DNA of 64,000 nucleotides from NCBI GenBank assembly GCA_964436045.1, contig CAYTBN010000029.1, positions 22,714-86,713 of the forward strand, given 5' to 3'. Shown piece by piece: positions 4,813-51,635 of the stretch. This DNA is from an uncultured Rickettsiales bacterium (GTDB lineage Bacteria > Myxococcota_A > UBA796 > UBA9615 > CAYRNR01). A model generated the notes under the pieces. That model had not been told where the DNA came from. It ran no database searches and saw only the letters and a list, made by a program, of their open reading frames with translations. The translations under genes were made by a program, and so were the position numbers. Every line of letters begins with the position of its first letter. Position 1 is the first letter of the stretch.

Positions 4813-6099
4813 ATGTCGCCCAGCAAGACCCTGGCGGGACTCGCGCCCGCGGTCGAACCCATGAGCCTGACGGAGAATCTCAAGCAGCAGATCCAGCGCC
4901 AGCCCCTGGGGGTCCAGGTAGCGCTGACCTCCGGCCTCGGCCTCCTGTTGCTCGGGACCCTCGCCATCTTCGATCCGATCCCGATCGTCGACGAGCTGGT
5001 CCTCGGCTGGCTCTTGTTCACGAGCATCTCGGCCACGTCGGGGACCCTGCAGAAACGGCGGGAGAAGTCGGAGCCGCCCCGGGTGAGCGCCTCGGTGGAC
5101 GTGCGCGCCCAGCAGGGGACCCCCGAGGCGGCCGAGGAGGATGGGGCGCTGAGTGCGGCGAAGGCCGAGGTCGGCGCGCTGGAGGGAAAACCCGGGGCCA
5201 AGACAGCGGCGGGCGTGGCCGCGGCCGGAACGGCGGCCGCGGGCGCGGGCCGGCCGGCGCCTCGACGGATCCCGGTCGGGGATGACACCTGGAAGACCTT
5301 CGAGTTGCTCCGCAAATGCCGCAAGTTGGCCCGCAGCCTGGAGGCGGATGGCTTCCCCGACGCGGGCAAGGAGCAATTGATAGCCATCGAGAAGCGAGTG
5401 GGAGAGCTCCGACGTCGGTTCAAGGAGCTGGAGCAGCTGCTACGAACCCGCGAGCTGGATCTGGGGCTGGCCGACCGCGAGATCAAGAAGCTGGACCGGC
5501 GGTTGGAGTCGGCCGGCGACGCGCTGGAGCGTGAGTCCCTGCAGCGCTCGATGGGGCACGCCGTCCATCATCGAGGGCACGTGCTCTCGGTCCTCGATGC
5601 ACGCAACCGCTACATCCTGCGATTGCAGGAACTCTACCACCACGTTCGCCAGCTGCATTCGTCGATGATGGTGATGGACAGCCCGGCCCAGATGGAGCCC
5701 GAGGAGCTGATCGAGGAGATCGACGCGCTGACGCTGTCGGTCGAGGCGGTGGAACTCGTGCGGCGGGAGGTGCAGTCGACGCTGTCGGTGGGGGCGAAGA
5801 AGGTCTCCGAGCCCGAGCCCGAGCCCGAGCCGGAGCCCGAGTCCGAGCCGGAGCCCGAGCCGGAGCCCGAGCCCGAGTCCGAGCCCGAGTCCGATCCCGA
5901 TCCCGATCCCGAGCCCGATCCCGATCCCGAGGCCGCGGCCGAGATGGACGATCACATCCGCCGCGCCGTCGAGGCCGAGCTCGCCGCGCTCGAGGTCAGG
6001 ATGGACGCAGATTCGCCGTCGGCTCCGGCCGAGGAGCCCGCGCGGGAGGAGTCTCGTCCGGATCCGCGCCGGGTGGCCCGCAAGGAACCGCAGGGTTAG
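4813..6099 (+). CDS. membrane-anchored coiled-coil protein with C-terminal EP (Glu-Pro) repeat
   Basis: Two predicted TM helices near the N-terminus. Heptad-like REL/KEL segments. (EP)n low-complexity tract encoded by a hexanucleotide repeat. Start could alternatively be the ATG at 4861. Confidence 0.65.
5809..5931 (+). repeat. hexanucleotide tandem repeat (GAGCCC/GAGTCC/GATCCC)n, about 20 units, encoding EPEPEP
   Basis: Direct reading of sequence 5809..5931. In frame inside CDS 4813..6099. Confidence 0.9.
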
Positions 6100-6227: not shown

Positions 6228-7358
6228 TCAGCTGGAGCAGTTGGGCAGATTGGGTTCGGCGACCTCATAGAGCCCGTCCGCGTCCCGCCAGTAACCCTCG
6301 GCGCCGTCGAGCACGAACGGGATGCAGGTCTGCTGCTCCGGATTACCCGGGCAGGGCTCGCAGGGAACGCCGAGCTTGTCGAGCAGGTCGCAGGTGCTTC
6401 CGGCGGCGTAGTTGTCCGGGTCATCGGTCAACAGGCCCAGCATCGCGTCCACCTGGAAGCCGTCGACCATGCCGCTGAGGCGGCCGTGGCTGATGGACTG
6501 TCCATCCGGCGAGAACTCCGCTTCCATGCCCAGCTGCATCACCGTCAGCCACTGCTCGCCATCTTCGTCCCACTGCTGCTGTCGCAGCGGGATGTCGACG
6601 TCGGTGACCGGCAAGGACAGGTGGGAGCCGTCCAGCGTCGCTGCGATCTCGCTGGTGATGTCCACCGTGACCTGGCACGAGTCCTGGTCGGCGGACATCT
6701 CGTCCATCGGGGCAGCGAGAAGGTCGACGTCGTCGCCGTCGCCGGCGGTCACCTCCAGCAGGAACGGCGGCATCTCCATCAGGTCCATCAGCGTCTCGAT
6801 ACCCGCCGGCTGGACGAGTTCACCGTGGCTCAGCTCCACGTAGTAGGTGGCGTCGGCCGGCAGATCGTCGGTCAGTGGGGTTCCCAGGACGCTGGTGGTG
6901 AACGACCAGCTGGCCGAGCAACCCGATCCATCGAGGGACGCGTGGTAGTCGGTCAACGGCTCCAGATGCAGGCTCGTGTCGTCACCGTAGGGATCGAACG
7001 TGAGCGTCAAGCCGTCGTCGGCCAGTGTCGTTTCGCCGACGATCGTCCCCTGGGGACCGCTCAGCGACAGGTCGCCCCACGCGACGGGTTCGGCGAAGAA
7101 GACCTGGACCGGATCCCGGTAGTAGGCCGTGGGGTCGCCGTCCACCGGAGCCGTGCCAGACACCAGGCAGTTGCCGTCCTCGTCGTCATCGTCGTCGTCG
7201 GCCGCGTCGTCGTCGTCGCCGGCCATGTCGTCGTCGTCCCAGCTGCCGGGCTCGTTTCCCCGGTCCTCGCTCGCGGCGAGGTCCGAGGCCGCGCAACCCG
7301 CCCCCACCAGGGGCAGCGCCAGAAGCGCCAGGCAGGTCTTCAACCACAGCGAGCGCAT
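6228..7358 (-). CDS. D-rich-linker lipoprotein, paralog A
   Basis: ATG start. Lipobox LVGAGC. Poly-Asp linker (DDDDMAGDDDDAADDDDDDEDG). The C-terminal Cys pattern CDLL..LG..CE.CP is shared with the neighbouring gene. Confidence 0.8.
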   Translation of the reverse strand: MRSLWLKTCLALLALPLVGAGCAASDLAASEDRGNEPGSWDDDDMAGDDDDAADDDDDDEDGNCLVSGTAPVDGDPTAYYRDPVQVFFAEPVAWGDLSLSGPQGTIVGETTLADDGLTLTFDPYGDDTSLHLEPLTDYHASLDGSGCSASWSFTTSVLGTPLTDDLPADATYYVELSHGELVQPAGIETLMDLMEMPPFLLEVTAGDGDDVDLLAAPMDEMSADQDSCQVTVDITSEIAATLDGSHLSLPVTDVDIPLRQQQWDEDGEQWLTVMQLGMEAEFSPDGQSISHGRLSGMVDGFQVDAMLGLLTDDPDNYAAGSTCDLLDKLGVPCEPCPGNPEQQTCIPFVLDGAEGYWRDADGLYEVAEPNLPNCSS

Positions 7359-7524: not shown

Positions 7525-8619
7525 CTACTCGGCGCAGGAAGGCCAACCCGCGATGTCATCCGCCGACACCTCCTGCAGGGTGGTGAACTCCTCAGCCGTC
7601 TCCGGGTGGTAGGCCAGCACGGACACTACCTCGCTGACGATGCCGTATGCGCTGACGGTCAGGCAGTAGGGGCCGGAGCCGTCCGGGCAATCCTCGCACA
7701 CGATGCCGAGGCTACCCAGCAGGTCGCAAGCCGCGCCCTCTTCCGCGCCCGGATCGATCAGGTCGTCGAGCACGCGGGTGTCCATCTGACCGTCGAAGGT
7801 GCCGCCGACCATCGCCGCGCCGTCGGGGGTGAAGGCTCCGCCGATCATCAGGTCGATGATGGTGGCCTCGTAGGTCTCGATGGCGATGTTGAAGTCGGTC
7901 GGGCCGATCTGCATGTAGGGATCGTCGAAGGTGCCACCGGGGAACTCGAGGGTCTCGGTGCACATGTCCTGGACGTAGTCGTTGCCGTCCTTGTCGACGA
8001 TGCCGCCGTAGACCTCGATGCTGCCGGCGCCGGCGTCGATGTCGGCCACGTGGAAGATCACGTAGACATCGGCGATGTACTGGCTCAGCAGGCTGCCCAC
8101 GCCCGGAGGCTCGGTGAAGGTCGCCGAACCCAGGTCGAGGAAGTAGTCGCCGCCCTCGATGGCGCCGGTGTCCGTGCCCGTCCCGACCTCGGAGGTCGCG
8201 AAGTTGAGCATGACGTCGTCGTGGCCGTCCCAGCTGATGGTCGCCGTGAAGTCGGTCGACGGCGCCAGGTCGCTGTCCGGATCGAAGGTCAGGATGGTGG
8301 CATTGTCGTTCATCGAGTTGGCACCCGAGACCGCACCGCCACTGCCGTCGGCCAGGGCCACACCCGCACCGGCCACCTCATCGGTGAACTCGATGATGAT
8401 GTTGCCCTTGTAGTAGAAGTCCGAGTCACCTTCCTGGGGGTCGGTGCTCTTGATCTCCGCCATGTCGTCGTCGTCGTCGTCGTCGTCGGTGGCGTCGTCA
8501 TCGTCGCCAGTCGCGTCGTCGTCGTCGTCGTCTCCCGAAGGACAGCCTGTGAACATGGCCAATGACAGGCCCATCAGACCGACCAACAGAAGGAGCCAAA
8601 GGTTTTTCGTTGTATGCAT
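7525..8619 (-). CDS. D-rich-linker lipoprotein, paralog B
   Basis: ATG with RBS GGAGAGAGG upstream. Lipobox FTGC. Poly-Asp linker. Same C-terminal Cys motif as 6228..7358 (tandem duplication). Confidence 0.8.
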   Translation of the reverse strand: MHTTKNLWLLLLVGLMGLSLAMFTGCPSGDDDDDDATGDDDDATDDDDDDDDMAEIKSTDPQEGDSDFYYKGNIIIEFTDEVAGAGVALADGSGGAVSGANSMNDNATILTFDPDSDLAPSTDFTATISWDGHDDVMLNFATSEVGTGTDTGAIEGGDYFLDLGSATFTEPPGVGSLLSQYIADVYVIFHVADIDAGAGSIEVYGGIVDKDGNDYVQDMCTETLEFPGGTFDDPYMQIGPTDFNIAIETYEATIIDLMIGGAFTPDGAAMVGGTFDGQMDTRVLDDLIDPGAEEGAACDLLGSLGIVCEDCPDGSGPYCLTVSAYGIVSEVVSVLAYHPETAEEFTTLQEVSADDIAGWPSCAE

Positions 8620-9621: not shown

Positions 9622-10901
9622 CCACATCTCGTCCCCTCGCCCTGTGCTGCCTGCTGGGGCTGCTCGCATGCTCTTCGCCCGAGACCACGGAGGTTCTGTC
9701 GCCCGCAGACGCCTACGCAGCGGCCCTCGAGGCCCTCGAGGCGGACGATGCTGCAACGGCAGAGGCGCTGTTCGCGCGGATGGTGGACGCCGATCCGGTC
9801 GATCCGGTCGCCCGCGCCGGTCTGGCCAGAGCGCTGGCCCACCAGGGGCGTTTCGGCGAGGCGATCATCCAGGACAAGCTGGCCTTCGCCCTCGAACCAC
9901 GGCTGGCCGAGGTGGCGTACAACACCGCCTGCTCCTACGCCCGCCTGGGTGAGCAGGAGGAGGCGCTGCGCTGGCTGTCACGGGCCTGGAACGGCGGTAT
10001 TCGCGACCTGAACCTGATCGAGCAGGACCCGGACCTGGACGCCCTGCGCCAGGATCACCGCTTCGCCTTCTTCCTGGCCACTGGCGCGCTGTCGCTGGCC
10101 GAACGGGAGGCGCTGGTGGAGGTCTCGCCGGCCTTGGTGTCTCCCGATCAGCGGGTCCGCGTCGAGCTGACAGTGGTCAGCCTCAACCGGCCGCTGATGG
10201 CCACTCCGGAGCAGCTGGGCCTGCGCTACACCGGCGACCTGAGCGCCGGCTCGCTGGCTCCAGTGGCCCGGGTCGAACGGTTCGAGGCGGGGGAGAGCGG
10301 CGGCCGCGAGTTCTTCCGCCGGGAGCTGGCCTTCACATTCGAGGCCCGGGAACCGATGGAGACCATGATCGGTCCTTTCGAGCTGTTCCTCGACGAGGAG
10401 GAGCTGCCGGTCCGGCCGGCCTGGCTATCGGTGCGAGAGGTGCTGCCGGATCTGTTCGCCCGCCGTGGGACCACGGGCAGCGACGCGGCCGTCCCGGACG
10501 CGGCAACGTGGTTTGCCCCGCCCAGCGAGCTGACCACCGCGGTTCGCCATCCGTTCGCCCGCTGGGAGGAGAGTGAGCCGGAGGGGGACGAGCTGGACGA
10601 CGCTCGCGGCGGGCGCGACCTGGTGGTCGGCGTCGAACTGGGCACCAACGGCGCATCCGTTCCCGCCGACCTGGTCCTCGAGTTACCCGCGGGCTGCGAC
10701 GTGTTCTCGCATCCGCGCACCACCGCGTTCCTGCGCACCCGCGCCGAGGGCGTGTCGCGGGTCTGGTTCCATCGTCGGCTGGTGGGAGAGGCGCCCCCTG
10801 GCGAGATCTTCCCTGGCTGCGCGGATCCGCTCCCCATCGAGGTGCGCCAGGGTGACGAGGTCTTGTTTCAGACCGAACTGCCGTGGCTCCAGGCCCGCTG
10901 A
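9618..10901 (+). CDS. TPR-repeat lipoprotein
   Basis: ATGA overlap with the pgeF stop. Lipobox LLAC. TPR-like helices near the N-terminus (AYNTACSYARLGEQEEALRWL). Confidence 0.75.
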   Translation: MTTSRPLALCCLLGLLACSSPETTEVLSPADAYAAALEALEADDAATAEALFARMVDADPVDPVARAGLARALAHQGRFGEAIIQDKLAFALEPRLAEVAYNTACSYARLGEQEEALRWLSRAWNGGIRDLNLIEQDPDLDALRQDHRFAFFLATGALSLAEREALVEVSPALVSPDQRVRVELTVVSLNRPLMATPEQLGLRYTGDLSAGSLAPVARVERFEAGESGGREFFRRELAFTFEAREPMETMIGPFELFLDEEELPVRPAWLSVREVLPDLFARRGTTGSDAAVPDAATWFAPPSELTTAVRHPFARWEESEPEGDELDDARGGRDLVVGVELGTNGASVPADLVLELPAGCDVFSHPRTTAFLRTRAEGVSRVWFHRRLVGEAPPGEIFPGCADPLPIEVRQGDEVLFQTELPWLQAR

Positions 10902-23349: not shown

Positions 23350-23469
23350 TCTCGTCTCCCTGATGGTGCCCGCGGGCCTGATCGGGCTGGCGGTGGTGTT
23401 CCCGATCGTGTTCTCGATCAATGCTTCGGTGATCGGCGCGAACCAGGATGGATGAAGGAGGACGGCAGC

Positions 23470-24390
23470 ATGACACGGCGCATCTGGATCGGTCTCGCGG
23501 CGATGGCGCTGCTGGCGGGGACGGGCTGTCCGAAGAGCGACGACGACGACAGTACGGGCGACGACGACACCACCAGCTCGGATGACGACGACGCGACGGG
23601 TGATGACGACACGACCGGGGACGACGACGCCACCGGGGATGACGACGACGCCACCGGGGACGACGACACCAGCGGCGACGACGGGGACGGCTACACGGTC
23701 TGCGAGGACTGCGACGACGGCGACCCGCTGGTCAGCCCTGGGGAGGCCGAGGCCCTCTGCAACGGGGTGGACGACGACTGCGATCCGGCCACCGACGATG
23801 CCCCCGACGACGACGGCGACGGCGCGACGGTCTGCGACGACTGCGACGACGACGACGGGTCACTGAACCTGGACGACGCGGACGGCGACGGCTGGACCAC
23901 CTGCGACGGCGATTGCGATGACGGCGATCCGGACCTGGAGCCCGCCGACCTGGACGGGGACGGCTACAGCCCCTGCGACGACGACTGCGATGACGACGAC
24001 GTCGACCTGGACCCCGCCGACGCGGACGGGGACGGCTGGTCCAGCTGCGACGGGGACTGTGACGACGCGAACGAGGGCTTCTCGATCAACTGCGAGGACC
24101 TGAACTGCGACGGCGACGGCTTGATCCACACCGTCCCCGACGGCTGCATGCACGACGGCGGCGTCAACGCGGGCGGGGACAGCCTGGAGGTCTACTGTTA
24201 CTGGGGGGTGGCCCGGTTCTGCCTGTCCGGAGAGTCTTGCCAGTGGCGCAGCGGCCAGCCGGGGAGCGACGACGGCACCACCTGCGAGCGCGCTGGCCTG
24301 ACCAGCGACTACATGGCCAACGCCTGGTGCGACTACTACGACGGCCACGCCGATTACAACTGCACCACCGCCGAGGACATCTACTTCTAG
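23470..24390 (+). CDS. Cys/Asp-rich lipoprotein with MopE-like putative metal-binding repeats
   Basis: ATG at 23470 with GGAGGA RBS. Lipobox LAGTGC. Long D-rich linker. Repeated DCDDGDP..GxxExxCxGxDDDCD units. Confidence 0.75.
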   Translation: MTRRIWIGLAAMALLAGTGCPKSDDDDSTGDDDTTSSDDDDATGDDDTTGDDDATGDDDDATGDDDTSGDDGDGYTVCEDCDDGDPLVSPGEAEALCNGVDDDCDPATDDAPDDDGDGATVCDDCDDDDGSLNLDDADGDGWTTCDGDCDDGDPDLEPADLDGDGYSPCDDDCDDDDVDLDPADADGDGWSSCDGDCDDANEGFSINCEDLNCDGDGLIHTVPDGCMHDGGVNAGGDSLEVYCYWGVARFCLSGESCQWRSGQPGSDDGTTCERAGLTSDYMANAWCDYYDGHADYNCTTAEDIYF

Positions 24391-25395: not shown

Positions 25396-25546
25396 CTGCG
25401 CCGGCAGGACCAGGGTGTCGCCCACCGTACGTAGCGCCGGGAAGAAGGGCCGGAAGGTGCGAATGCTCGCCAGCTGCGAGTCGACACGGGACCAGATACC
25501 CACACCGAGATGCTGAGCACCACGGAGCCACCCGTCAAGCGGAGTT

Positions 25547-25585
25547 CCGGGTGCCACGGCCGGACAAGCCGACCGTGGCACCCGG
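25547..25585. repeat. palindromic repeat element, copy 1 (ccgggtgccacgg-N13-ccgtggcacccgg)
   Basis: Perfect 13-bp inverted arms in the divergent intergenic region between the radical SAM gene and gene 25613. Confidence 0.7.
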
Positions 25586-25612
25586 CCGCTGGGTTCTCTA
25601 GAATCGCCCTGC

Positions 25613-27211
25613 ATGACCACGGAACCCACCGACAACCCTGGCGAGGCCGCCGCGGTCGTCCCAGCCCCGAAGGCGGCAGAGACGGCCGCCAGCCGGCGCG
25701 TGCTGCGCTACGCCGTGCTGGCCGGGCTCTGCCCCTTGATCCCGATCCCCTTCCTCGACGACGTGCTGGCCGGCATGTTCCGCGCCCGGATGATCCGGGG
25801 GCTGGTGGCCGATGCCGGCCTGAGGCCCGAACCGCTACAGGCGGATCTGTTGGCCTTCGAGCCCCTCCCGATCCGCCTGCTCGGCTGTTTGTTCGGCCTG
25901 ATCTGGGCAGTCGTCAGGAAGCTGTTCCGCAAGATCGTCTACATCTTCGCGGTCAAGGACTGCGTCGACACCGCCTCGCGGGTGATGCACCACGGCTGGC
26001 TGTTCCAGTACGCACTGACCGAGGGGATCCTGAACCAGCAGACCTTCGACGACGGCAACGAGGCCATCCGGCACGTCCGCGACGCGATCCGCACCGCCAC
26101 CGATCGGGTCGACCCTCGCCCGGTCAACAAGGCACTACGCCAGGTGTTCCTCGGCAGCCGCTCTCTGGTCAAGGGCGCCGCGCGCGCCGTGGGCCAGATC
26201 CTCCGCGGCGGTGGCGCGAACCGCCGAGACAGCGAGGCCACCGACCGCGCCGTCTCCGATCTGGAGACCCGTCAGGTCGGAGAGGTCGAGCGGATTCTCG
26301 ACGAACTGGTCACGACCCTCAAAGGGAGCGCTTCGTACCGCGAGAACCTGGAACGGGAGTTCCGCGAGGTCCTCGCCGAAGGCGACCCAGGGCCGAGCGC
26401 CGCGGCGCTGCTGGTGCTCTTCTTGGCCCTCGTCGCGGGCTGCGGCGGGGGAGGGCCGGTGGCAACGGACGGGACGGTTGGCTGCAACCAGGACGATCCG
26501 CAGCTGCGGGACGTCTGTCAGCTCGCCGGCGTCTGGGACCTGGACGATCCGGAGCTCGGCACCGTCCAGCCGATCTGCGAGGGCATGTCGACCACCTGGT
26601 ACCGGGACATGTGCTGGCTGGCGTCGGCCCAGTCGCCGTCCTCGACCATGGCGCTGCGGGAGCAGTCCACGGCCGCCGGCACCTGGGCCACCATGCCCGT
26701 CTCTCCCGGTGGCTGGGACGTGTGGGGCTTCTGCGAGCAGATCCACGACCCGTTCTGGGTCCAGGAGTGCAAGCTGTTCCTGCTGGACATGTACGTGGGC
26801 GACATCGATCCGACGAGCCGGCTGACGATCTGCCTGAGCGAGATGCCGTTGCTGCAGGAGATCTGCGTCAAGCACGGGGTCAATCGCTGGGCGGAGGGCA
26901 TGACCCAGGTCTGCGTGCCCGGCGGCGCTCCGCAGTGCACCTCGTGGTTCAGTCCCGACGAGCTGGCAGCCCAGCTGGACGCGCTGCGGGTGGGAGGCGC
27001 TGCTAGCCCCCAGCCCGCGGTGGCGGCGCTCGCGCGGGCGCTGCTCGAGCACGCCCATCCCGACGACTGGGAAACACGCTGTCTCGCGCTGCCGGGCGCC
27101 GACGCGGCCCGCTGCCGGCCAGCCGCCGATCCGCACCAGGCGGGCGTGATGAAGCTCCAACGGGTGGACTCCCTGGTCTGGCGCGAAGTGGAGGAGCCCC
27201 GATGGTGGTGA
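25613..27211 (+). CDS. two-part membrane protein with C-terminal Cys/Trp-rich periplasmic domain, hypothetical
   Basis: ATG start. N-terminal half is hydrophobic/amphipathic. Central segment LVLFLALVAGCGGGG resembles a TM/lipobox. C-terminal 250 aa contain about 14 Cys. Confidence 0.6.
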   Translation: MTTEPTDNPGEAAAVVPAPKAAETAASRRVLRYAVLAGLCPLIPIPFLDDVLAGMFRARMIRGLVADAGLRPEPLQADLLAFEPLPIRLLGCLFGLIWAVVRKLFRKIVYIFAVKDCVDTASRVMHHGWLFQYALTEGILNQQTFDDGNEAIRHVRDAIRTATDRVDPRPVNKALRQVFLGSRSLVKGAARAVGQILRGGGANRRDSEATDRAVSDLETRQVGEVERILDELVTTLKGSASYRENLEREFREVLAEGDPGPSAAALLVLFLALVAGCGGGGPVATDGTVGCNQDDPQLRDVCQLAGVWDLDDPELGTVQPICEGMSTTWYRDMCWLASAQSPSSTMALREQSTAAGTWATMPVSPGGWDVWGFCEQIHDPFWVQECKLFLLDMYVGDIDPTSRLTICLSEMPLLQEICVKHGVNRWAEGMTQVCVPGGAPQCTSWFSPDELAAQLDALRVGGAASPQPAVAALARALLEHAHPDDWETRCLALPGADAARCRPAADPHQAGVMKLQRVDSLVWREVEEPRWW

Positions 27212-27821: not shown

Positions 27822-27967
27822 CCCGTAGACGTTCTCGGAACGTCGGTTCGATCTCGGCACGGGGTTTGCGTCGGCCCGCCCAGCGGTTCTCGACGCTTGG
27901 GATCGGGGCCGATCCGCAGCCAGCGTGCGTGCCATCGCAGGCGATTCCGGCCGTGCTTCCGCGGGGA

Positions 27968-27996
27968 CACGGCCGGACAAGCCGACCGTGGCACCC
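27968..27996. repeat. palindromic repeat element, copy 2
   Basis: cacggccggacaagccgaccgtggcaccc. Located 28 nt downstream of the stop of CDS 28024..29874. Confidence 0.65.
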
Positions 27997-28023
27997 GATT
28001 CTGGGGCATTTTCCCGAACGCTG

Positions 28024-29906: not shown

Positions 29907-32900
29907 CTACTCCACGATCACCTTGTCCGTCGACGTCCGGCCGAAGGTCTCGGGATGGTACATCTCCTCGGCCTTGGTGGGGGGCACGACGAACTCGCCG
30001 GGGGTGGTGGCGCGGGCGACGTAGGTGTACTCGTGGACGCCGTCCCACAGCAGGGAGGCGAAGGCTTCCACGCGCTCGTCGCGCATGTTCTCGTGCTCGT
30101 ACCAGGTGCGCCACCACCACCAGTAGCGGTCGCCCTGGTTGGCGGAGGGATCGGCCGGCAGGGTGCCGGTGACGGCCAGGTCCGGGTTGACCGGTTCGAG
30201 TCCGGCGGGCAGCGGGTCGACCAGGGCCACGTGGTAGCGCCGCATGGGGGCGACCATGGTCAGCCGGATCCGCACGCGGGCGCCGGCCTTGATGCGCCAG
30301 GTTCCGTCCTCGTCCCGCGAGACGTCCGCGTCATCGTCGATGGGCTCGTAGGCTCGCTCGACCGCGAAGCCGTAGTCGGCGGCCTCCAGGTCCAGATCCC
30401 GCGGCGCGTAGTTCATGCCGATGCGGTAGTACATCCGCCCGTCGCCGTCCTTCTGCAGCAGCAGGTTCTGGTCGCCGGGGGTCTCGGTCAGGTAGGCCAT
30501 CGGCACGTCGATGTGGGCCCGCTCGGTGGTCCGACCGCGGAACTCGTGCTCGCCGGCGAAGGTGTCGCCCAACCAGGCCCGTGCCACGAAGTCCGGCGTG
30601 GTGCCTTCGTAGACGTGGAAGTAGCGGTCCAGGGCCAGCAGGATGAAGCAGTTCTCCTGGGTGTTGGACCACTTGCCCCGCTTGCGATGGTCCAGCAGGC
30701 CGGCCACCAGCTTGGGGATCACGTCGTTGTCGGTCTCCACTCCGATCAGCGCCTCGAGCAGGATGCCGTCGGCGCGGCGGTCCGAGTGCAGCAGCACGTG
30801 GGCGCCGTCGCTGTAGGACGTGACGAAGTGGGCGCCGGCCGCGGTCTCGGTGACCCGGTTGCTCAGGTGGCGCAGGATGGCGTCCACCTGGGAGTCGTTC
30901 TTGCTCTGCAGGGTCGGCAGCAGCCAGCCCAGCGACTCCAGCGGCATCTCCTCGATGCCCCCGGCCTCCTTGATCAGCTTGCGCGCCTCGGCCTCGTCGG
31001 TGTCGTCCATCCGGTTGCGGACGTAGACGGCGTAGCTGCGGATGAAGCGCTTCGACTCCTCGGAGTACCAGTGGGGGATGTGGCGTTCGATGCGAGCCAG
31101 ATAGGTCTGCGCGTTCTGCAGCATCTGCTCGTCGACCTCGTAGCCCTTCGACCGGGCGCGGGTCAGCGCGTGGGCCACGTGGACCGTCAGGTAGGGCCAG
31201 CTCTCGTCACCCTTGCGCCAGAAGGACCAGCCGCCGTCGTGGTTCTGGCGGACCTTCAGCCGCTCCAGGTCCGCCGCGACCACCGCCTCCAGCTCCTCGG
31301 GGGACGGCATGCCGTCGGCCTCGAACGCCGTCAACACGTCTCGCAGGGCGGCGATGGCCAGCACCCGCGAGCTGATCTGCTCCTGACACTCGAAGGGGTA
31401 CTGCACCAGGTACAGCACCGCGTCGGTCAGGGCCTGCAGCTGGGTCGACGAGGTGGTGATCTCCAGGCCACCGAACTGGGGCCAGACCTCGCCCGGGGCC
31501 CGCACGGGCTGGACGATCACGCCGTCGTCGATCACGCCGTAGGTGGCGAAGGCCTCGGACGTGGCCGGTGTCCAGACCGGCAGCTCGAAGCTTGCCGCGT
31601 CGGCGAACGACCCGGTGGACGCCACCACCTGGAAGCGGGCCGTGCCCGCCATCTGGGCCGCGGCCGGGAAGCGGACCTCGACCCGGTCGTTGGCCGGGAT
31701 CTGGACCCGCCGGCCGCTCGCCACCGGCAGCCCGGTGCCCTCGCCGGGGATCGCCTGTTCCAGGGTGTCGGCCAGCGAGACGTTGGTCGCCCGCAGCACC
31801 AGCTCGACGGTCATCGGTCCATCGGTCTGGTTCTGCAGCACCACCGGCAGCTCGAAGCGGTCGCCGAAGTTGAGGAAACGCGGCGCCGACGGCCGGGTCA
31901 TCAGCGGCAGCCGGGCGGTGATCGACGACTCTCCCGAGCCGAACTGCTGGCCCCCGGCGACGGCCACGGCCATCACCCGGTAGCGGGTCAGCGAGTCCGG
32001 CAGCTTCAGGTCGACGCTGGCCTTGCCCTGGCCGTCGGTGGTCACCTCCGGCGCGAACAACGCCAGGGCGCGGAAGTCGGTGCGCATGGCGATGGGCGCC
32101 TCCTTGTCGCCGCCGCCCTTGCGCGCGGACTTCTTGGAGGCCGAAAGCGTCCGTCTTTCCTCCATGCCGGAGGCGTCGTCGTCGAACTCGTCCTCGGCCA
32201 GGCGGGCCGCACCCTCCATCGGGGCTGGCGGCATCGCGCCGAAGTCGGCGTTGAATAGGGGCATCGCACTCTGGGCCATCGCCCCGCCGGCAGACATGTT
32301 GGCCGCGGCCATCGCCGCCACCGCCTGGGGATCGGAGAGCAGCACCTGGTGGCGGGAGTGGTAGTCGGACACTCCGGCGCCGCGGGCCGTGTAGAACACG
32401 TCGATGGGGTTGGGTAGCTTGAAGCCGGTCAGCGCCAGCACCGATTCGTCCGCCACCACCAGCGCCACCTCGGCACCGGCCACCGGGTTGCCGGCGGCGT
32501 CGGTGACCAGCAGGTCGATGGCGGTCTCGGCGCCGGGCTCGGTCTTCGCCGCTCGCGGCGTCACCGCCACGTCGAGGGTGCGCTCCAGCGCCGGTACCTG
32601 GAACGTCAGGCTGCCGGTGGCGAAGGCCACCCGTTTCGGCACCCCCGCCATCGGTTCGCCCTGGTCGTCGGTACGCGTCGCCGCGCCCACGAGATCCACC
32701 TGGACCGTCACGTCCGGGACGTGCTCGTCGAGGATCGGGATCTCCAGGGTGGTGGTCGCCTCCTCCATCCGGAAGCGCTCCGTGCGCACCAGCCCCGAGC
32801 GGCGGATGGTCATCACACCCTCGGCCGGGAAGAAGGGGGCCTGGACGAGGATCTGGGCGGTGGTGCCAGGCTCGACGGTGTCGTTGGCCGGGATCAAGGT

Positions 32901-39041: not shown

Positions 39042-40619
39042 TCACCCGGTGTAGTGGCGGTCGACCACGGCGAGGGCGCGGTCGAGGCGGGCGATGCCGT
39101 CGTCGATGTCGTCGCGGGTGGCGATCAGGGGCGGTGCCAAGGCGATGGAGTTGGTGGGGTTGGCCGCCATCGCGATCATGTCCTCGGCGGCGATGGCCTT
39201 GGCCAGCTCCTGCTTGGGCGTGGGCCCCTTGCTCAGCCGCGCGTCCATCGGCTGGATCGGTTCTCTGGTCGTCCGGTCTTTGACCAGATCGAGGCCCACG
39301 AACAGACCCAGGCCGCGGACCTCGCCGATGCAAGGGTGGCGATCCTGGAGCGCGCGGGCCTGGTCCAGCAGGTAGGCGCCCAGGGTGGCGGAGTTCTCGA
39401 TCAGGCCGTCCTCCTCGTAGATCTGGATCACGCGGAGCGCCGTGGCGCAGGCCAGGGCGTGACCGGCGTAGGTGGCGCCGTGGTTGAAGAAGCGGTCGCG
39501 GAACAGGTCGGCCACGGGTTTGCGGGCGATGGTCGCCCCCAGCGGGACGTACCCGGCGGTGATGCCCTTGGCCACGGCCATCACGTCAGGCACCACGTCC
39601 CAGTGGTCCACCGCAAACCAGCGGCCCGTGCGGCCGAACCCGCTCATCACCTCGTCGGCGATCAGCAACAGGCCGTGGCGATCGCAGATCTCGCGGATGC
39701 GGGGCATGTAGTCCGGCGGAGGCACGATGACGCCGTTGGCCCCGGTGATCGGCTCGACGATCATCCCGGCGATCTGGTCGGCGCCGCCCTCCAGCTCGAT
39801 CACCTCGTCGACGAAGGAGGCGCAGCGCAGCTCACACGACGGGTACTCCAGGCCGAACATGCAGCGGTAGCAGTAGGGCTGCGGTACGGGCACCCAGTCG
39901 GTGCCGCCCCGGATCTGGGCCCACGACCGCACGTCCCCCACCGACAGGGTCAGCGCTGCCGCCGTGGCGCCGTGGTAGGCCCGGTAGCGACACAGGATCT
40001 TGGCCTTGCCCGTGGCCTGGTGGGCGATCTTGATCGCCGCCTCCACCGCCTCGGTGCCCCCCAGCGTCAGGAACGAGCGGGACAGGTCACCGGGCGTGAT
40101 CTCCGCCAGCGTGCGGGCCAGCAGCGCCCGCGGCTGGGTCGAAAACGTCGGCGCGAACGAGCACAGCGACCCGCTCTGCTCCCGGATCGCCTCGACCACC
40201 CGCCGGTCGCCGTGGCCGATGTTGTGGCTGGCAAAACACGACGAGAAGTCCAGCCGCTCCCGCCCGTCCTCGGTCACGAACCGGCACCCCTCCGCGGACA
40301 CCACCCGCGGCGGCGCCACGTCGGGCTGATGACTCCACGAGTGGAAGACGTGCTCGACCTCGTAGCGGTCCAGGTCGGCGGGGGTGGCGGGGATGTTGGG
40401 CAGATCGCGCATGACGGCCACCTCGTTGCTGGCGTCGTACACCAGCACCGGGCCGCGGTTCAACTGCGGAAACGCATTGTGGCGGGCGGCGTTGACGTAG
40501 ACGTTCCCCTGCAGGCCCTCGCCGGTGAAGATGCCGCTGAAGTCGGCGAGTTGCTCGTCGAACATGTCGGTCATGCCCAGGGACTGCAGGGCCTCCTTCA
40601 GGGGCAGCTCGTAGTCCAT
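39042..40619 (-). CDS. class-III (omega) PLP aminotransferase; the catalytic core probably begins at the ATG at 40412
   Basis: IADEVMSGFGRTGRWFAVDHWDVVPDVMAVAKG (PLP Lys). HVFHSWS N-terminal region. The first 69 codons (40413..40619) are coding-like but atypical. Confidence 0.8.
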   Translation of the reverse strand: MDYELPLKEALQSLGMTDMFDEQLADFSGIFTGEGLQGNVYVNAARHNAFPQLNRGPVLVYDASNEVAVMRDLPNIPATPADLDRYEVEHVFHSWSHQPDVAPPRVVSAEGCRFVTEDGRERLDFSSCFASHNIGHGDRRVVEAIREQSGSLCSFAPTFSTQPRALLARTLAEITPGDLSRSFLTLGGTEAVEAAIKIAHQATGKAKILCRYRAYHGATAAALTLSVGDVRSWAQIRGGTDWVPVPQPYCYRCMFGLEYPSCELRCASFVDEVIELEGGADQIAGMIVEPITGANGVIVPPPDYMPRIREICDRHGLLLIADEVMSGFGRTGRWFAVDHWDVVPDVMAVAKGITAGYVPLGATIARKPVADLFRDRFFNHGATYAGHALACATALRVIQIYEEDGLIENSATLGAYLLDQARALQDRHPCIGEVRGLGLFVGLDLVKDRTTREPIQPMDARLSKGPTPKQELAKAIAAEDMIAMAANPTNSIALAPPLIATRDDIDDGIARLDRALAVVDRHYTG

Positions 40620-40776
40620 CTCGAAGGACGGCAGGTGGACGGTGGCCGGGCATCGGCGTGCCCGGTACCGCGGCTACCGGCGTCGCGCCCAGCGGCCCAC
40701 GACCGCCCACAACCCTCGCGGGGCCGACTCGAGGTCCTCGTCGTCGTCCAGGACCATGTCGAGGACGGGACCCTGT

Positions 40777-40888
<112 letters not shown>

Positions 40889-41514
40889 ATTCCGCCTCCG
40901 CCCGAACATCCTCCAACGTCAGCGTCAGATCCGGCTCGAACGACCCCAGGACGATCTCCTCGTCCTCGACCCCGAGCTCGCTCCGGACCGGTGCGACCGG
41001 GAGGGGGGGCTCCATGCTCGGAATCCCCTCGCTGCCGTCCAGCGACAGCGACAGCACGTCCTCCGACACGAGCAGGTGGGCGTCGCTCACCTCTCCTGAC
41101 GGCCAGCCAGCGACGAGCAGCGTGCAGCCCCGGCAGAACAGCACACCCGAGGGAAGCACGAAGGCCGCCTTGAGCCCGCAACCCGGGCAGACGGCGCCGT
41201 CCTCGAACCCCTCGGCGCCATCGGTCGCGGCGTGCAGCGCGATCCCGTGGCTCCCCGCCAGCATCCGCCGCTGGGGCGGCGTCAGCCAGGGAGCACCCTC
41301 GGCCACCGTCGGCGCCCGCTCCGCCGCGATGTGCAAGGCCGACCCGAGGTACGCGTCAAACGCGACGCTGGCCGTCTGGCCACAACCGTCGCACTCGACC
41401 GCGAACGACAGTTCGTGGCTGACGTTCTCCCGACCGCATCGCGGGCACTCGTACATCGTTCCGCCTCGATCGTCTCTCATCGGACCCTCCAATCTGCTAG
41501 GCACGGTTCCCATC

Positions 41515-43919: not shown

Positions 43920-45899
43920 ATGAAGCGCCACCTGCCCCTGACCGGGCTGTTCGCCGTGCTCGCCTGCCTCGCCCTGCTTGCCTGCGATCCCGAGGATCCG
44001 ACCGGGGACGACGACACCACCGGGTCGGTGGATCCGATCCACGTCGACATCGACGAGGAGTGCGACAACGTCAATCCGGACTACTGCATGCTGCCGTGGC
44101 CCTCGAGTCGTTACCTGGCGGCCGACGACGGCACCGCCACCGGCTGGCGGGTCGACTACCGCGAGGACGCGTTCACCAAGAACCACATGGACCAGCCCTT
44201 CGACGTCGAGCCCTACAATCGGCTCGACGGGTTCAGCCCCGCGTCGCAGCTGCTGACGGTCTTCGACGCGCCGGTCGACGCCTCGGCGTTGCCCTTCCAC
44301 GACAGCTACGACCTGTCCCTCGAGGCCGACTGCCCGACGGTGGTCCTGGACATGGAGACCGGCGAGCGGCTGGCCCATTTCGCCGAGTTCGACACCCGCT
44401 TCGACTACCCCGGCGAGATCATGATGTACATCCGGCCAGCGGAGCGGCTGGAGGAGAACCGGCGGTATGCGGTGGCGATCCGCGGCCTGCAGTACGAGGA
44501 CGGCGGCGAGGTACCGCCGTCCGAGGTGTTCGCCGCCCTGCGCGACGGCGTGATCACCGACGCGGCCCAGGTCGAGGCCCGTCGCCCGGGCTTCGAGGAG
44601 GTCTTCTCCGCGCTGACCGGTGCCGGAGTCGAGCGCGATGGCCTGATCCAGGCCTGGGACTTCCACACCGCGTCGGGCGAGATGATCTGGGGCGACCTGC
44701 TCCACATGCGGGACGACGCCTTCGAGCGGCTGGGCGCCGACGGGCTGGGCTGCACCATCACATCGGTGGAGGAGTTCACCCCCGAGGAGAACGACCAGGT
44801 CTTTCGCAAGATCAAGGGCACCTACACCGTGCCGTCGTACATGGACAGCCCCTACCCGCCCGCGCGGGTGGTGCGCGGTGACGATGGGCGGCCCGAGTTC
44901 CAGGAGAACCAGGAGATCGAGTTCTTCATGAACATCCCCCAGAGTGTGGCCGAATCCGGCGGTCATCCCGCCCGGCTGATCACCCATGGTCACGGGCTGA
45001 TGGACTCGGGCGAGGCGGTGTTCTGGAGCGGCGAGCGGGGCATCGCCCAGGACGTGGGCGTGGTGATGGTCGGCACCCACTGGGCCGGCATGTCCGAGGA
45101 CGACCTGGTGACCGTGGCCACGGCCCTCTCCAATGTCTCGAGCTTCCCCAACGTGGCCGAGCGGACCATGCAGGGGATCGTCAACATGCTGGCGCTGACC
45201 CGCACCATGGCCGGGGTCTGTGCCGTCGAGCCCGATCTCCAGATCGACGGCACGCCGGCCTATGATCCCGACGAGCGCTACTACATGGGTGTCAGCCAGG
45301 GGGCGATCTACGGCCAGTCCTACATGGCCCTCTCCCAGGACCTGGAGCGGGGCATCCTCAACGTCGGCGGCACCATCTACCCGGTGATGATCGGCCGCTC
45401 GGTGGACTTCCGCGACTACGAGCTGGTCTACGAGGCCTGGTACAGCGACCGCATCGACCGCGAGTTCTTCATGAACCTGATCCAGCAGCTGTGGGACATG
45501 TGCGAGGGCGCCGGCTTCCTGCCCCACCTGCTGGACGACCCCCTCCCGGGTAGCGAGGCCAAGAAGATCCTCTACCAGGTGGCCCTGCACGACGCCCAGG
45601 TCCCCAACGTGGCCTCGGACATGGCGGCTCGCATCGCCGACATGCCCCAGCTCGTGCCCACCATGCACGAGGTCTGGGGGGTCGAGGACGCCCCGACCGA
45701 GCCCTACGACGGCTCGGCGATCCAGTACTGGGATTGCGGCGACGAACCCCTCGATCCGGGCAACAATCCGCCGGAAGAGGACAATACCGCCCACGACTGC
45801 GTCCGCCGCCTGGTCGCGGCCAAGAACCAGATGGACGCCTTCTGGCAGCCGGACGGCCAGGTGGTGAACTTCTGTGACGGGGAGTGCGATCCGGAGTGA
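43920..45899 (+). CDS. lipoprotein, hypothetical (possible hydrolase fold)
   Basis: ATG start. Lipobox LLAC. D-rich linker. 659 aa with good composition. Confidence 0.75.
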   Translation: MKRHLPLTGLFAVLACLALLACDPEDPTGDDDTTGSVDPIHVDIDEECDNVNPDYCMLPWPSSRYLAADDGTATGWRVDYREDAFTKNHMDQPFDVEPYNRLDGFSPASQLLTVFDAPVDASALPFHDSYDLSLEADCPTVVLDMETGERLAHFAEFDTRFDYPGEIMMYIRPAERLEENRRYAVAIRGLQYEDGGEVPPSEVFAALRDGVITDAAQVEARRPGFEEVFSALTGAGVERDGLIQAWDFHTASGEMIWGDLLHMRDDAFERLGADGLGCTITSVEEFTPEENDQVFRKIKGTYTVPSYMDSPYPPARVVRGDDGRPEFQENQEIEFFMNIPQSVAESGGHPARLITHGHGLMDSGEAVFWSGERGIAQDVGVVMVGTHWAGMSEDDLVTVATALSNVSSFPNVAERTMQGIVNMLALTRTMAGVCAVEPDLQIDGTPAYDPDERYYMGVSQGAIYGQSYMALSQDLERGILNVGGTIYPVMIGRSVDFRDYELVYEAWYSDRIDREFFMNLIQQLWDMCEGAGFLPHLLDDPLPGSEAKKILYQVALHDAQVPNVASDMAARIADMPQLVPTMHEVWGVEDAPTEPYDGSAIQYWDCGDEPLDPGNNPPEEDNTAHDCVRRLVAAKNQMDAFWQPDGQVVNFCDGECDPE

Positions 45900-47569: not shown

Positions 47570-48667
47570 CTATAACAACGACCAGCAGGCCTGGTGGGTC
47601 GGGTGGTGGTGGAGGTGGCCGGGGGCGCCACAGGCAGCCTGACCGGCATGGTCCACCGGAACGGTACAGGCCTCGGTGGCGGCCGGATCCCGCTGGAACA
47701 CGATGCTGTGGGACCAGTGGCCCCAGACGTTGATGGCGTACTGGCCGCAGTAGTTGCAGCCCTGGTCGTCGGTCTCCCACCAGCCGGTCGTCAGTTCGGT
47801 GGCGACGTCCGACGGCTCGTCCATCACCCACAGCTGGAACACCAGGAACCCGTGGTCGCTGATGGGCCAGTAGTTGTAGCCCACGAACGAGCCGTTGCCA
47901 TCGGTGGTGACGAACTCGGGGATGTCGTCGCCGCCGTTGTAGATGGTGCCGGGGTCGGTGCTGTCGGCGTAGTGGATCGCGATGTCGGTGTTGGGCACGC
48001 CGTTGCCCTGGGCGTCGAGAACCTGGACGTGGACCTCGTTGCCGTAGGTCGGCTGCTCGCCGCAGGTCCACTGGTGGTTGCTGGTGACCCGGTACACTCC
48101 CTGGGTCAGCGGCGGTCCCTGGGGCCGCTCGGTGACCAGCACCTCGCCGGAGATCTCGGGTATCACCCCGTCGATCAACCCCAGCAGACACATTTCACCC
48201 AGCTGCACGTCCGGGATCGCGTAGTAGTAGAAGGTGTCCCCGCCGCCGGCCACGATCGTCGTCGGCTCCAGGACCTCCCCCCACGATCCGTCGGCCTTCA
48301 TCGCCATCGACGGATAGGTGTCCGGGGACTGGCCGGGCGCCTTGACGATCACCGTGAGCGTGTCGCCGGGGTGGGGATCGGCGGGATCGAAGTACATCTC
48401 GCCGTTGAGGACGGGCGAGGTCACGGCCGCCGGCTCGCAGGTGTATGGCGCCACCGTGTCGTCATCGCCTGTGTCGTCGTCGCCCGAGGTCGTATCGTCG
48501 TCGCCCGGGCTCGTGTCGTCGTCATCGTCGGCGGTGTCGTCGTCGTCCGGCCCGGGGTGGGGGGTGTCGACGATCTCCAGGCCGGGGCAGCCGAGGAGTA
48601 GTCCGAAGAGCACGGCCGGGCAAGCCGACCGTGGCACCCAGCTTCCGAGGATCGCCACTGCCATCAT
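47570..48667 (-). CDS. D-rich-linker lipoprotein
   Basis: ATGATG overlapping the glgB stop (TGATG). Lipobox LLLGC. Poly-Asp linker. Palindromic repeat copy 3 lies inside the signal-peptide coding region. Confidence 0.6.
   Translation of the reverse strand: MMAVAILGSWVPRSACPAVLFGLLLGCPGLEIVDTPHPGPDDDDTADDDDDTSPGDDDTTSGDDDTGDDDTVAPYTCEPAAVTSPVLNGEMYFDPADPHPGDTLTVIVKAPGQSPDTYPSMAMKADGSWGEVLEPTTIVAGGGDTFYYYAIPDVQLGEMCLLGLIDGVIPEISGEVLVTERPQGPPLTQGVYRVTSNHQWTCGEQPTYGNEVHVQVLDAQGNGVPNTDIAIHYADSTDPGTIYNGGDDIPEFVTTDGNGSFVGYNYWPISDHGFLVFQLWVMDEPSDVATELTTGWWETDDQGCNYCGQYAINVWGHWSHSIVFQRDPAATEACTVPVDHAGQAACGAPGHLHHHPTHQACWSLL
48611..48639. repeat. palindromic repeat element, copy 3
   Basis: cacggccgggcaagccgaccgtggcaccc. 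Located 27 nt downstream of the glgB stop. Confidence 0.65.
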
Positions 48668-51128: not shown

Positions 51129-51635
51129 TCAGAAGGAGCAGGAAGAGCCGGTGTCGTCGGCGCAGCTGCCCGAGTAGGACGAGTAGAAGGAGCAGCGGAC
51201 CCAGTGGCCGTTGGTGAAGGTGACGGTGTAGGAGCTGAGGCCGTTGGGGCCGGAGCCGCCGTAGCTGTAGTTGACCGTGTAGCTGCTGGTGGCGCAGGAG
51301 TAGGAGAAACCCTCGTCGGAGCAGTCGTAGATGTCGCAGGCCTGCGCGTCGTCGTCGTCGTCGTCGTCATCGTCGTCGTCGTCATCGTCGTCCGAGGGCC
51401 AGCCGTCGTCGTCATCGTCGTCGTCGCTGGCATCGTCGTCGTCGTCCTGCTCCTCGTCGCCGCAGAGTTCGGAGCCGTCGCAATCCGTGTCGTAGCAGTC
51501 CAGCCAGCCGTCGACGTCGTTGTCGACGCCGTCTCCGCAGTCGGACTCGAAGGTGCCGCAGCCGGATACGACCAGGGCCAGCAGTGCGATCGCGGTGAGC
51601 GCCAGGGTCAAGATGGGAACGAAAAAGCGATTCAT
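51129..51635 (-). CDS. lipoprotein with MopE-like Cys/Asp module and about 34-residue poly-Asp tract
   Basis: ATG at 51635 with GGAGG RBS. Lipobox LVVSGC. CGDGVDNDVDGWLDCYDTDCDG. Then DDDDDASDDDDDDDGWPSDDDDDDDDDDDDDDD. Confidence 0.7.
   Translation of the reverse strand: MNRFFVPILTLALTAIALLALVVSGCGTFESDCGDGVDNDVDGWLDCYDTDCDGSELCGDEEQDDDDDASDDDDDDDGWPSDDDDDDDDDDDDDDDAQACDIYDCSDEGFSYSCATSSYTVNYSYGGSGPNGLSSYTVTFTNGHWVRCSFYSSYSGSCADDTGSSCSF
51350..51449. repeat. (GAC/GAT)n trinucleotide tract encoding poly-Asp
   Basis: Direct reading of gtc/atc runs on the plus strand inside CDS 51129..51635. Confidence 0.9.

Follow-up and report, generated by a model that had tools for sequence, protein, structure and literature searches.

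The DNA analysed here is a stretch of 64 kb, referred to below as the window, in which a 29-nt sequence, CACGGCCGGRCAAGCCGACCGTGGCACCC, occurs exactly three times. All three copies lie in the plus orientation and agree with one another without a mismatch except at the R position (Table 1). Copy 1 is located in a 110-nt spacer between two divergent genes. The gene to its left, on the minus strand, encodes a protein with the Pfam domains Radical_SAM and SPASM and probably starts at GTG 25503, as judged from the GC3 pattern, and the gene to its right starts at ATG 25613 on the plus strand. Copy 2 lies beyond the end of a minus-strand gene for an IgGFc_binding protein, and copy 3 lies beyond the end of the minus-strand gene glgB, where it overlaps the 5' end of the next minus-strand gene, encoding a lipoprotein. 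With the gene calls around the copies based on GC3 and on Pfam matches, all three fall within non-coding DNA, which makes up roughly 10% of the window (P about 0.001). When the copies were aligned together with 100 nt on either side, the identity was seen to start and stop sharply at the 29-nt core, the flanks being unrelated.

An earlier note on this DNA had reported a perfect-palindrome element present three times and had held such a recurrence to be beyond chance expectation. The recurrence and the enrichment are both upheld: no match to the 29-mer was obtained in 100 dinucleotide-preserving shuffles with up to 3 mismatches allowed, and at the same tolerance the window contains no fourth match. 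The description of the element as a perfect palindrome holds for one copy, since it is the 29-nt core that is present thrice, but the 13-bp perfect arms (25547-25559 / 25573-25585) are confined to copy 1, whereas copies 2 and 3 retain the inner hairpin alone (CACGGcCGG-RCAAG-CCGaCCGTG). A long perfect palindrome is therefore not the defining trait of the repeat. The placement of copies 2 and 3 close to minus-strand stop codons was likewise confirmed, each copy ending exactly 27 nt away. Only 3 copies were seen in about 72 kb, as an extension of about 8 kb to the left of the window contributed 0 further copies.

Table 1. Coordinates of the repeat copies and of the features associated with them in the window.
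Feature	Position	Strand	Details
Copy 1, collapsed doublet	25547..25585	.	GGGTGC tail + hairpin + GCACCC tail; core 25555-25583 (+)
Sigma-70-like match, GTGGCA-18 nt-TAGAAT	25575..25604	+	Consensus match only; 1 site versus 0.1 expected
Degenerate inverted partner of copy 2, with spacer	27927..27967	-	Partner 27927-27955, spacer 27956-27967
Copy 2, intact unit of a decayed inverted doublet	27968..27996	+	27 nt past the IgGFc_binding stop codon 28024-28026 (minus)
Long-form flank module	28007..28023	+	cattttcccgaacgctg; on the minus strand CAGCGTTCGGGAAAATG; directly abuts the stop codon
Candidate lipoprotein start inside the element	48587..48637	-	GTG 48637
Copy 3, singlet, G loop variant	48611..48639	+	27 nt after the glgB stop codon 48667-48669 (minus)

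The core folds into a 9-bp stem with one C x A mismatch and a 5-nt loop, followed on the plus strand by a 6-nt unpaired tail, GCACCC, and preceded in this orientation by a weakly conserved purine-rich stretch (~GGRRGA) immediately 5' of the core. On the strand that is usually the sense strand, the unit reads 5'-GGGTGC, then the hairpin CACGGUCGG-CUUGY-CCGGCCGUG with one G.U pair in its stem, then a pyrimidine-rich flank. The predicted RNA fold of the unit is stronger for the minus strand (-19.2 kcal/mol, z -2.8) than for the plus strand (-15.2), because the C x A mismatch of the plus strand becomes a G.U pair on the minus strand. In total, 37 units were collected, among which there are 7 distinct sequences. 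Of these units, 31 belong to one of two variants that differ in the loop (minus-strand T or C), and the rare variants comprise three single substitutions, a triple-substituted unit in contig L006, and one sequence with an altered tail. In the L006 unit, CACGGCGGG…CCCGCCGTG, a stem pair is changed from C-G to G-C in a compensatory manner and the mismatch is repaired, which supports the stem. The GGGTGC tail is present in 36 of the 37 units, and the three bases outside it vary (GTC in 5 of 36 units, CGTC in 2).

Read as protein, the repeat yields the 'peptides' VPRSACPAV and HGRTSRPWH in otherwise unrelated reading frames, and the earlier note had concluded from this that the conservation is at the DNA level. 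Both peptides are indeed genuine read-outs of the repeat. For the metagenome scan, all nine third codon positions of the minus-strand VPRSACPAV frame were set to N in the search pattern, and the positions so freed were nevertheless found essentially invariant; among the rare variants, third-position changes occur only at core position 7 (L016, L028, L022 and L006). The reading frames that run over the element also vary from locus to locus. Conservation is therefore at the level of the nucleotide sequence and not of a peptide, and a shared coding module was ruled out. The two peptides are repeat artefacts, which should serve as a warning to annotators. The element, as read from its sequence, is without a stop codon in all six frames, and its overlaps with gene 5' ends are therefore tolerated.

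Outside the window, the 29-mer was found in 28 further contigs from public metagenome-assembled genomes (MAGs) and metagenomes, beside unrelated genes. A scan of GTDB species representatives returned the core in four contigs of one MAG and in one contig of a second MAG, both with about 70% GC and both carrying the submitter label 'uncultured Rickettsiales'; in the related MAG, only 4 exact copies were found. The metagenome scan returned 24 contigs, of which 23 contain true copies. Element-bearing contigs range in GC from 0.63 to 0.71, and the 29 nt are near-invariant across them. Homologues of the window proteins are named Nannocystaceae, Myxococcota, Polyangiales or Deltaproteobacteria, and for this reason the host is assigned to an uncultured Myxococcota lineage; the label 'uncultured Rickettsiales bacterium' of the element-bearing MAGs looks wrong by this comparison of sequences. 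Genes for a type II secretion pseudopilin and for a GspK-like protein are present on one of the contigs of these MAGs. Contigs often end at or near the element, which would explain metagenome contig breaks of this lineage at these sites.

Several other matches were set aside. The search patterns also fit contigs L003 (Anaerolineae), L004 (an Acetobacteraceae MAG) and L023, in which the rest of the core differs; these were treated as chance or unrelated matches. In L004, at 5699-5727 and again about 60 nt downstream, there are two copies of the motif GG(T/C)CAAGC(C/T)GACCGTG(G/A)(C/A)ACCC, which has the 3' two-thirds of the core in common with the element and lacks the 5' stem; either chance or a distant alphaproteobacterial repeat family could account for this resemblance. 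The 29-mer had no match in viral contigs, and a phage origin was rejected on this ground. The 15-mer GCCGACCGTGGCACC does not occur in the searchable literature.

Five forms of the repeat were distinguished, comprising singlets (the commonest), inverted doublets, collapsed doublets, decayed doublets and one tandem array. In the six inverted doublets (L013, L014, L017, L019, L029 and L031), the tails point outward and the spacer is exactly 12 nt, giving a 70-nt hairpin with a predicted energy of -71 kcal/mol (z -10.4); none of the six has a direct target-site duplication at its borders. Looser inverted pairs are present in L002 and L006. The three collapsed doublets (copy 1 of the window, L009 and L026) have the form GGGTGC-hairpin-GCACCC, and the tandem array consists of three units in L008 (151-247), beside a tRNA-Ser gene. 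The doublet of L017 can be compared with its 88%-identical orthologue in L005, which keeps only the first 18 nt, GGGTGCCACGGTCGGCTT, and differs by an in-frame 57-nt deletion. Since L005 thus holds a truncated remnant of the L017 doublet, copies decay by deletion.

Copy 1, as a collapsed doublet, forms a 39-nt palindrome in which 13 perfect bp are followed by a single C x A mismatch, read as G.U on the minus strand, and then by 3 bp that close a 5-nt loop, and its minus-strand RNA is predicted to fold with -37.8 kcal/mol (z -7.4). The sigma-70-like site listed in Table 1 has its -35-like hexamer within the copy 1 tail, and 8 nt separate the end of its -10 hexamer, TAGAAT, from ATG 25613, a stretch that lacks a Shine-Dalgarno sequence. 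The transcript of the orphan 532-aa gene starting at this ATG may be leaderless, with a -35-like box donated by the repeat. The 532-aa protein itself (25613-27211), encoded between copies 1 and 2 and beside the radical-SAM/SPASM gene, is a near-orphan: Pfam gave no match, and the only homologues obtained align over 42% of its length at 33-37% identity. Because this neighbour is without a close homologue, a search for an empty site corresponding to copy 1 gave nothing. A sub-threshold Rfam match to Chloroflexi-1 RNA (25527-25586, minus strand; 22.6 bits versus a gathering threshold of 80, E = 0.15) overlaps copy 1 and is probably a mere GC-rich hairpin resemblance. This was the best sub-threshold Rfam match. 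At gathering thresholds the whole window gave nothing, nor did a search in E-value mode, and a known RNA family was accordingly rejected.

Copy 2 is accompanied by a degenerate inverted partner that matches the unit at 20 of 29 bases, its final 9 nt, CCGGCCGTG, being intact. The spacer between the two, cttccgcgggga, is 12 nt long, as in all six intact doublets elsewhere, and nhmmer returned a partial reverse match to the element at 27946-27961, inside the partner. Copy 2 also belongs to a long form of the unit, with five members in all, in which a AGCAGCGTTCGGGGAAAC module (minus strand) lies about 8 nt outside the tail. Similar modules at equal distance from the tail are found in L006, L013 and L019 (two copies), where the adjoining genes are non-homologous. 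In a relative, L043, the IgGFc gene is 88% nucleotide-identical and stands in a rearranged context, so that no orthologous copy-2 spacer could be aligned; the 22 kb of this contig contain 0 copies of the 29-mer.

Copy 3 allows a closer comparison with relatives. The gene order glgB-lipoprotein is kept in L037 (73% amino acid identity) and in L038/L039 (81%), and in the syntenic glgB-lipoprotein spacers of L037 and L038 the element is absent, the spacer being different, with no copy in 21 kb of each. The zero counts in the relatives' contigs are in themselves not statistically decisive. Direct evidence comes from the orthologous copy-3 site, where the element is missing. The L037 spacer without the 29-mer (9872-10000) contains two other palindromes with 8-bp stems, TTCTTCCG…CGGAAGAA and GAACTTCC…GGAAGTTC, which may represent a different small-repeat family of that lineage. 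In the window, translation from GTG 48637 gives M-P-R-S-A-C-P-A-V from the element, followed by L-F-G-L-L-L-G-C, whose terminal Cys (48589-48587) is that of the lipobox. No in-frame start codon lies closer to the lipobox than the GTG with which the element itself ends, and initiation there would leave just 8 residues in front of this Cys. Alternative ATG and GTG starts are present upstream of copy 3, automatic gene callers picked GTG 48667, and the orthologues have ordinary lipoprotein N-termini, e.g. MPRLAIWAALLPLLLGC. The start codon of the lipoprotein gene (47570-48637) may lie inside the repeat.

Taken together, the three copies probably represent a lineage-restricted REP/REPIN-like family of non-autonomous, hairpin-forming repeats in uncultured Myxococcota (Nannocystaceae-like). 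The grounds for this reading are the imperfect palindrome with its one-sided tail and G.U pair, the extragenic dispersal, the dimers and clusters, the lineage restriction, and the absorption of copies into ORF ends. The earlier note had left open a choice between a REP-like extragenic palindrome and an operator. The former is favoured by a short imperfect palindrome at many unrelated intergenic sites in several public assemblies, and also by the inverted doublets, the arrays and the placement of copies mostly just past stop codons.

Most descriptions of REP/REPIN families come from Proteobacteria, and other phyla have yielded scattered cases. REPs are known to lie near ORF 3' ends, to form head-head dimers, to contain G-T pairs and to overlap ORF N-termini (PMC3733652). 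Much of the general description of REPs (Di Nocera et al. 2013, PMC3733652) applies to the present element, which is a GC-rich imperfect palindrome in the 20-40-nt range, has an unpaired motif at one end only and G-T pairs in its stem, occurs as singlets, head-head dimers and clusters, and is mostly intergenic, near the 3' end of the upstream ORF and at times over ORF N-termini. The geometry of a 9-bp stem with a 5-nt loop is shared with the CGTC-3/4 families of the same survey. By contrast, the tail is GGGTGC and not GTAG/GTRG or CGTC, which places the family outside the GTAG and CGTC superfamilies. The first two stem pairs are both A-T in the CGTC families and C-G/A-T here, and the spacer of REP dimers is mostly 20-100 nt there and fixed at 12 nt here (PMC3733652). 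The string 'Myxococc' does not occur in the text of this survey.

A parallel in architecture is offered by the REPINs (Bertels & Rainey 2011, PMC3116915; PMC3337134), where two inverted REPs with a short spacer form one long hairpin, singlets resemble decayed doublets, and the distribution is lineage-restricted, all as found here; the properties of the element also match the REPIN definition of PMC3337134. The REPIN-RAYT system differs in that its defining partner is a single-copy RAYT (a Y1/HUH transposase, Pfam Y1_Tnp) flanked by the same repeats, and in the GTAG head that is missing here. No RAYT/Y1 transposase was found in the 187 kb of sequence scanned, either by tblastn with an E. coli YafM query or by a scan for the motif HxH…YxxNP, and Pfam identified no transposase among 38 of the predicted window proteins. 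A RAYT is normally single-copy in a multi-Mb genome, and since the sample is small by comparison, this result is weak negative evidence. In its behaviour the family resembles REPs and REPINs, but it is placed neither in a tagged superfamily nor among REPIN-RAYT systems.

Two other classes of small palindromic repeat resemble the element in part. Rickettsia palindromic elements (RPEs) exceed the present element in length, and many conserved genes carry them as in-frame insertions. The element resembles RPEs and intragenic REPs in being stop-free in six frames and apparently translated at several loci, and differs in that its coding overlap, as deduced from the sequence, is confined to 5' ends. 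The Correia elements of Neisseria and other MITEs are likewise short intergenic elements with inverted repeats, which are co-transcribed and can give promoter or RNA-processing signals. Correia elements are 100-155 bp long and have TA target-site duplications, whereas here no duplication is present and the unit is only 29-70 nt.

A scheme for the REP/REPIN-like family may be proposed as follows. The replicating or ancestral form would probably be the inverted doublet, arranged tail-hairpin-12 nt-hairpin-tail as a 70-nt perfect hairpin, and mobilisation would occur in trans by a single-strand, hairpin-recognising transposase of the HUH/Y1 (RAYT) type. The element would have landed in intergenic DNA near stop or start codons, leaving no target-site duplication, the outcome expected of such an enzyme. 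Loss of DNA between the near-identical hairpins could then give rise to the singlets, to the 39-nt palindrome of copy 1 and to the half-decayed copy 2; the collapsed doublet has exactly the form that would remain if a doublet were deleted from one of its CACGG starts to the other. Once inserted, the element would be co-transcribed with its neighbours and fold into a stable RNA hairpin, which could protect upstream 3' ends or modulate the translation of the next gene, and a few copies would have become part of the 5' coding ends of genes for exported proteins. Active transposition is presumed from the sequence patterns. Among the sequences compared, no clean pair of filled and empty sites at high identity was found.

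The positions and orientations of the copies bear on an alternative, in which the element is a cis-acting RNA hairpin selected by the host, serving for instance to stabilise or process mRNA between cistrons, to terminate transcription in a non-canonical way, or to control the translation of exported-protein genes; its identity would be kept by the binding of one host factor, and its mobility would be incidental or long past. At 14 other loci the element lies 11-127 nt past a GC3-supported stop codon, the usual positions being 14-45 nt after a stop codon, where many copies are found, or at or over a gene 5' end. The strand with GGGTGC followed by the hairpin is the sense strand in 16 of 20 singlets (two-sided p = 0.012), and it is on this usual sense strand only that the mismatch becomes a G.U pair. 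Such an orientation with respect to transcription would fit selection on RNA, as would the near-invariance of the 29 nt over contigs of such varied GC, though the bias could be due to replication-strand bias instead of an RNA-level function. The genes whose 5' ends are overlapped encode exported proteins, namely the lipoprotein beside copy 3, lipoproteins in L014 and L031, a pseudopilin in L005, and GspK-like proteins in L017 and L005. Past the element, these genes have no usable start codon (none at all, or one too near the lipobox), and the element appears to be translated as an N-terminal or leader part at the window lipoprotein, L014, L031, L005 and L017. Against selection as a hairpin stands the finding that copies in the opposite orientation, symmetric doublets and arrays also occur, that decayed or truncated copies are tolerated (copy 2; L005), and that relatives lack the element at the same site. 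The Rfam result is also unfavourable. An intrinsic terminator was rejected, since the flank after the hairpin is YUCYUCC, with no U run, and a terminator scan found 0 sites at the window copies. A host-selected hairpin is considered unlikely as the primary explanation, and does not conflict with the REP explanation, since exaptation of this kind is common among REPs.

A more elaborate proposal, and an improbable one, is that the element is no selfish repeat and is a host-maintained, portable gene-boundary cassette, in which the GGGTGC-hairpin would be recognised by a specific RNA- or ssDNA-binding factor or by a new non-RAYT mobilising enzyme. It would link the 3' end of one gene to the initiation of translation at the following one, and several genes for exported proteins would owe to it both their start codon and the positively charged n-region of their signal peptide. 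If true, this would define a new untagged REP class, dedicated to the expression of secreted-protein and lipoprotein genes.

The inverted doublets suggest a further possibility, that of a MITE of a DDE-type insertion sequence (IS), with the 29-mer as the terminal inverted repeat of that IS and the singlets as solo ends. Two perfect 29-nt inverted repeats around a 12-nt core are formally MITE-like, and the contig breaks at or near the element are usual for mobile repeats. This origin is nevertheless quite improbable, given that none of the six doublets has a direct target-site duplication, that singlets are more numerous than doublets, that each repeat is itself a hairpin with a one-sided tail, as is typical of REPs or of IS200/IS605-type ends and not of DDE-type ends, and that no IS or transposase lies beside any copy in the sequence examined.

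The remaining readings regard the copies as protein-binding sites on DNA. The operator for a dimeric transcription factor with a small regulon, which the earlier note had offered as the other choice, draws on the strong dyad of copy 1 in a divergent promoter region beside the radical-SAM/SPASM gene, and on the resemblance, by sequence inspection only, of TGGCAC in the tail to a sigma-54 -24 box; it is now highly unlikely, as the long dyad is limited to 3 of the 37 units, stop codons precede copies 2 and 3 and no fewer than 12 others, most copies sit at gene 3' ends or between co-directional genes, the neighbouring genes are functionally unrelated, and tandem arrays and 70-nt doublets are not operator architecture. 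A sigma-54 promoter was also rejected, the -12 element (TTGC, at fixed spacing) not being conserved in the right flank and most copies pointing the wrong way with respect to the genes. The link through an operator or regulon between the rSAM gene, the IgGFc-binding gene and glgB is not supported and was dropped. A site for a site-specific recombinase (Xer/dif-like, integron attC-like or invertase-type), with the DNA between direct copies as a cassette, is suggested by copies 1 and 2, which are direct repeats 2.4 kb apart, both imperfect dyads of about 28 nt, bracketing the orphan 532-aa gene, and has very little probability, since the 9-5-9 geometry with its odd-length central region is unlike the 11-6-11 or 13-8-13 of known recombinase core sites, Pfam found no integrase or recombinase among the 38 window proteins scanned, most copies elsewhere are single or in inverted pairs just 12 nt apart, and no cassette-like shuffling of bracketed genes was seen.

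As a REP/REPIN-like family, the repeat would extend the range of these elements to uncultured marine-type Myxococcota. An untagged family with a fixed 12-nt doublet spacer would also provide a test case for the question of whether untagged REPs have a transposase of their own.

Further features of the window were recorded in the course of the analysis. A tRNA fragment or att site was rejected as the source of the repeat, as the sole tRNA call of the window is unrelated and the tRNA-Ser of L008 has no sequence overlap with the array beside it. The window call, an 86-nt tRNA-Pro(GGG) predicted by ARAGORN at 30129-30214 (plus strand), lies inside the 3' coding end of a 2039-aa alpha-2-macroglobulin gene on the opposite strand, and because of this location it is probably a false positive. 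A long, imperfect hexanucleotide microsatellite, (TCGGTC)n, of about 20 units with in-frame TAG codons, occupies 40770-40895 in the spacer that separates an aminotransferase gene (39042-40619) from the minus-strand gene following it. In L001, L007 and L018, arrays of a similar kind, (GGTCTC)n, directly adjoin the 29-mer. Many predicted lipoproteins and secreted proteins of the window carry long Asp-rich linkers (DDDT/DDDG repeats) right after the lipobox Cys (43920-45899, 47570-48637, 23452-24390, 7100-7260, 8450-8530 and 51300-51480). These linkers give rise to the largest 'repeat families' of the window, seen as GTCGTC/GACGAC runs, and the same linkers are present in orthologues from related Myxococcota.
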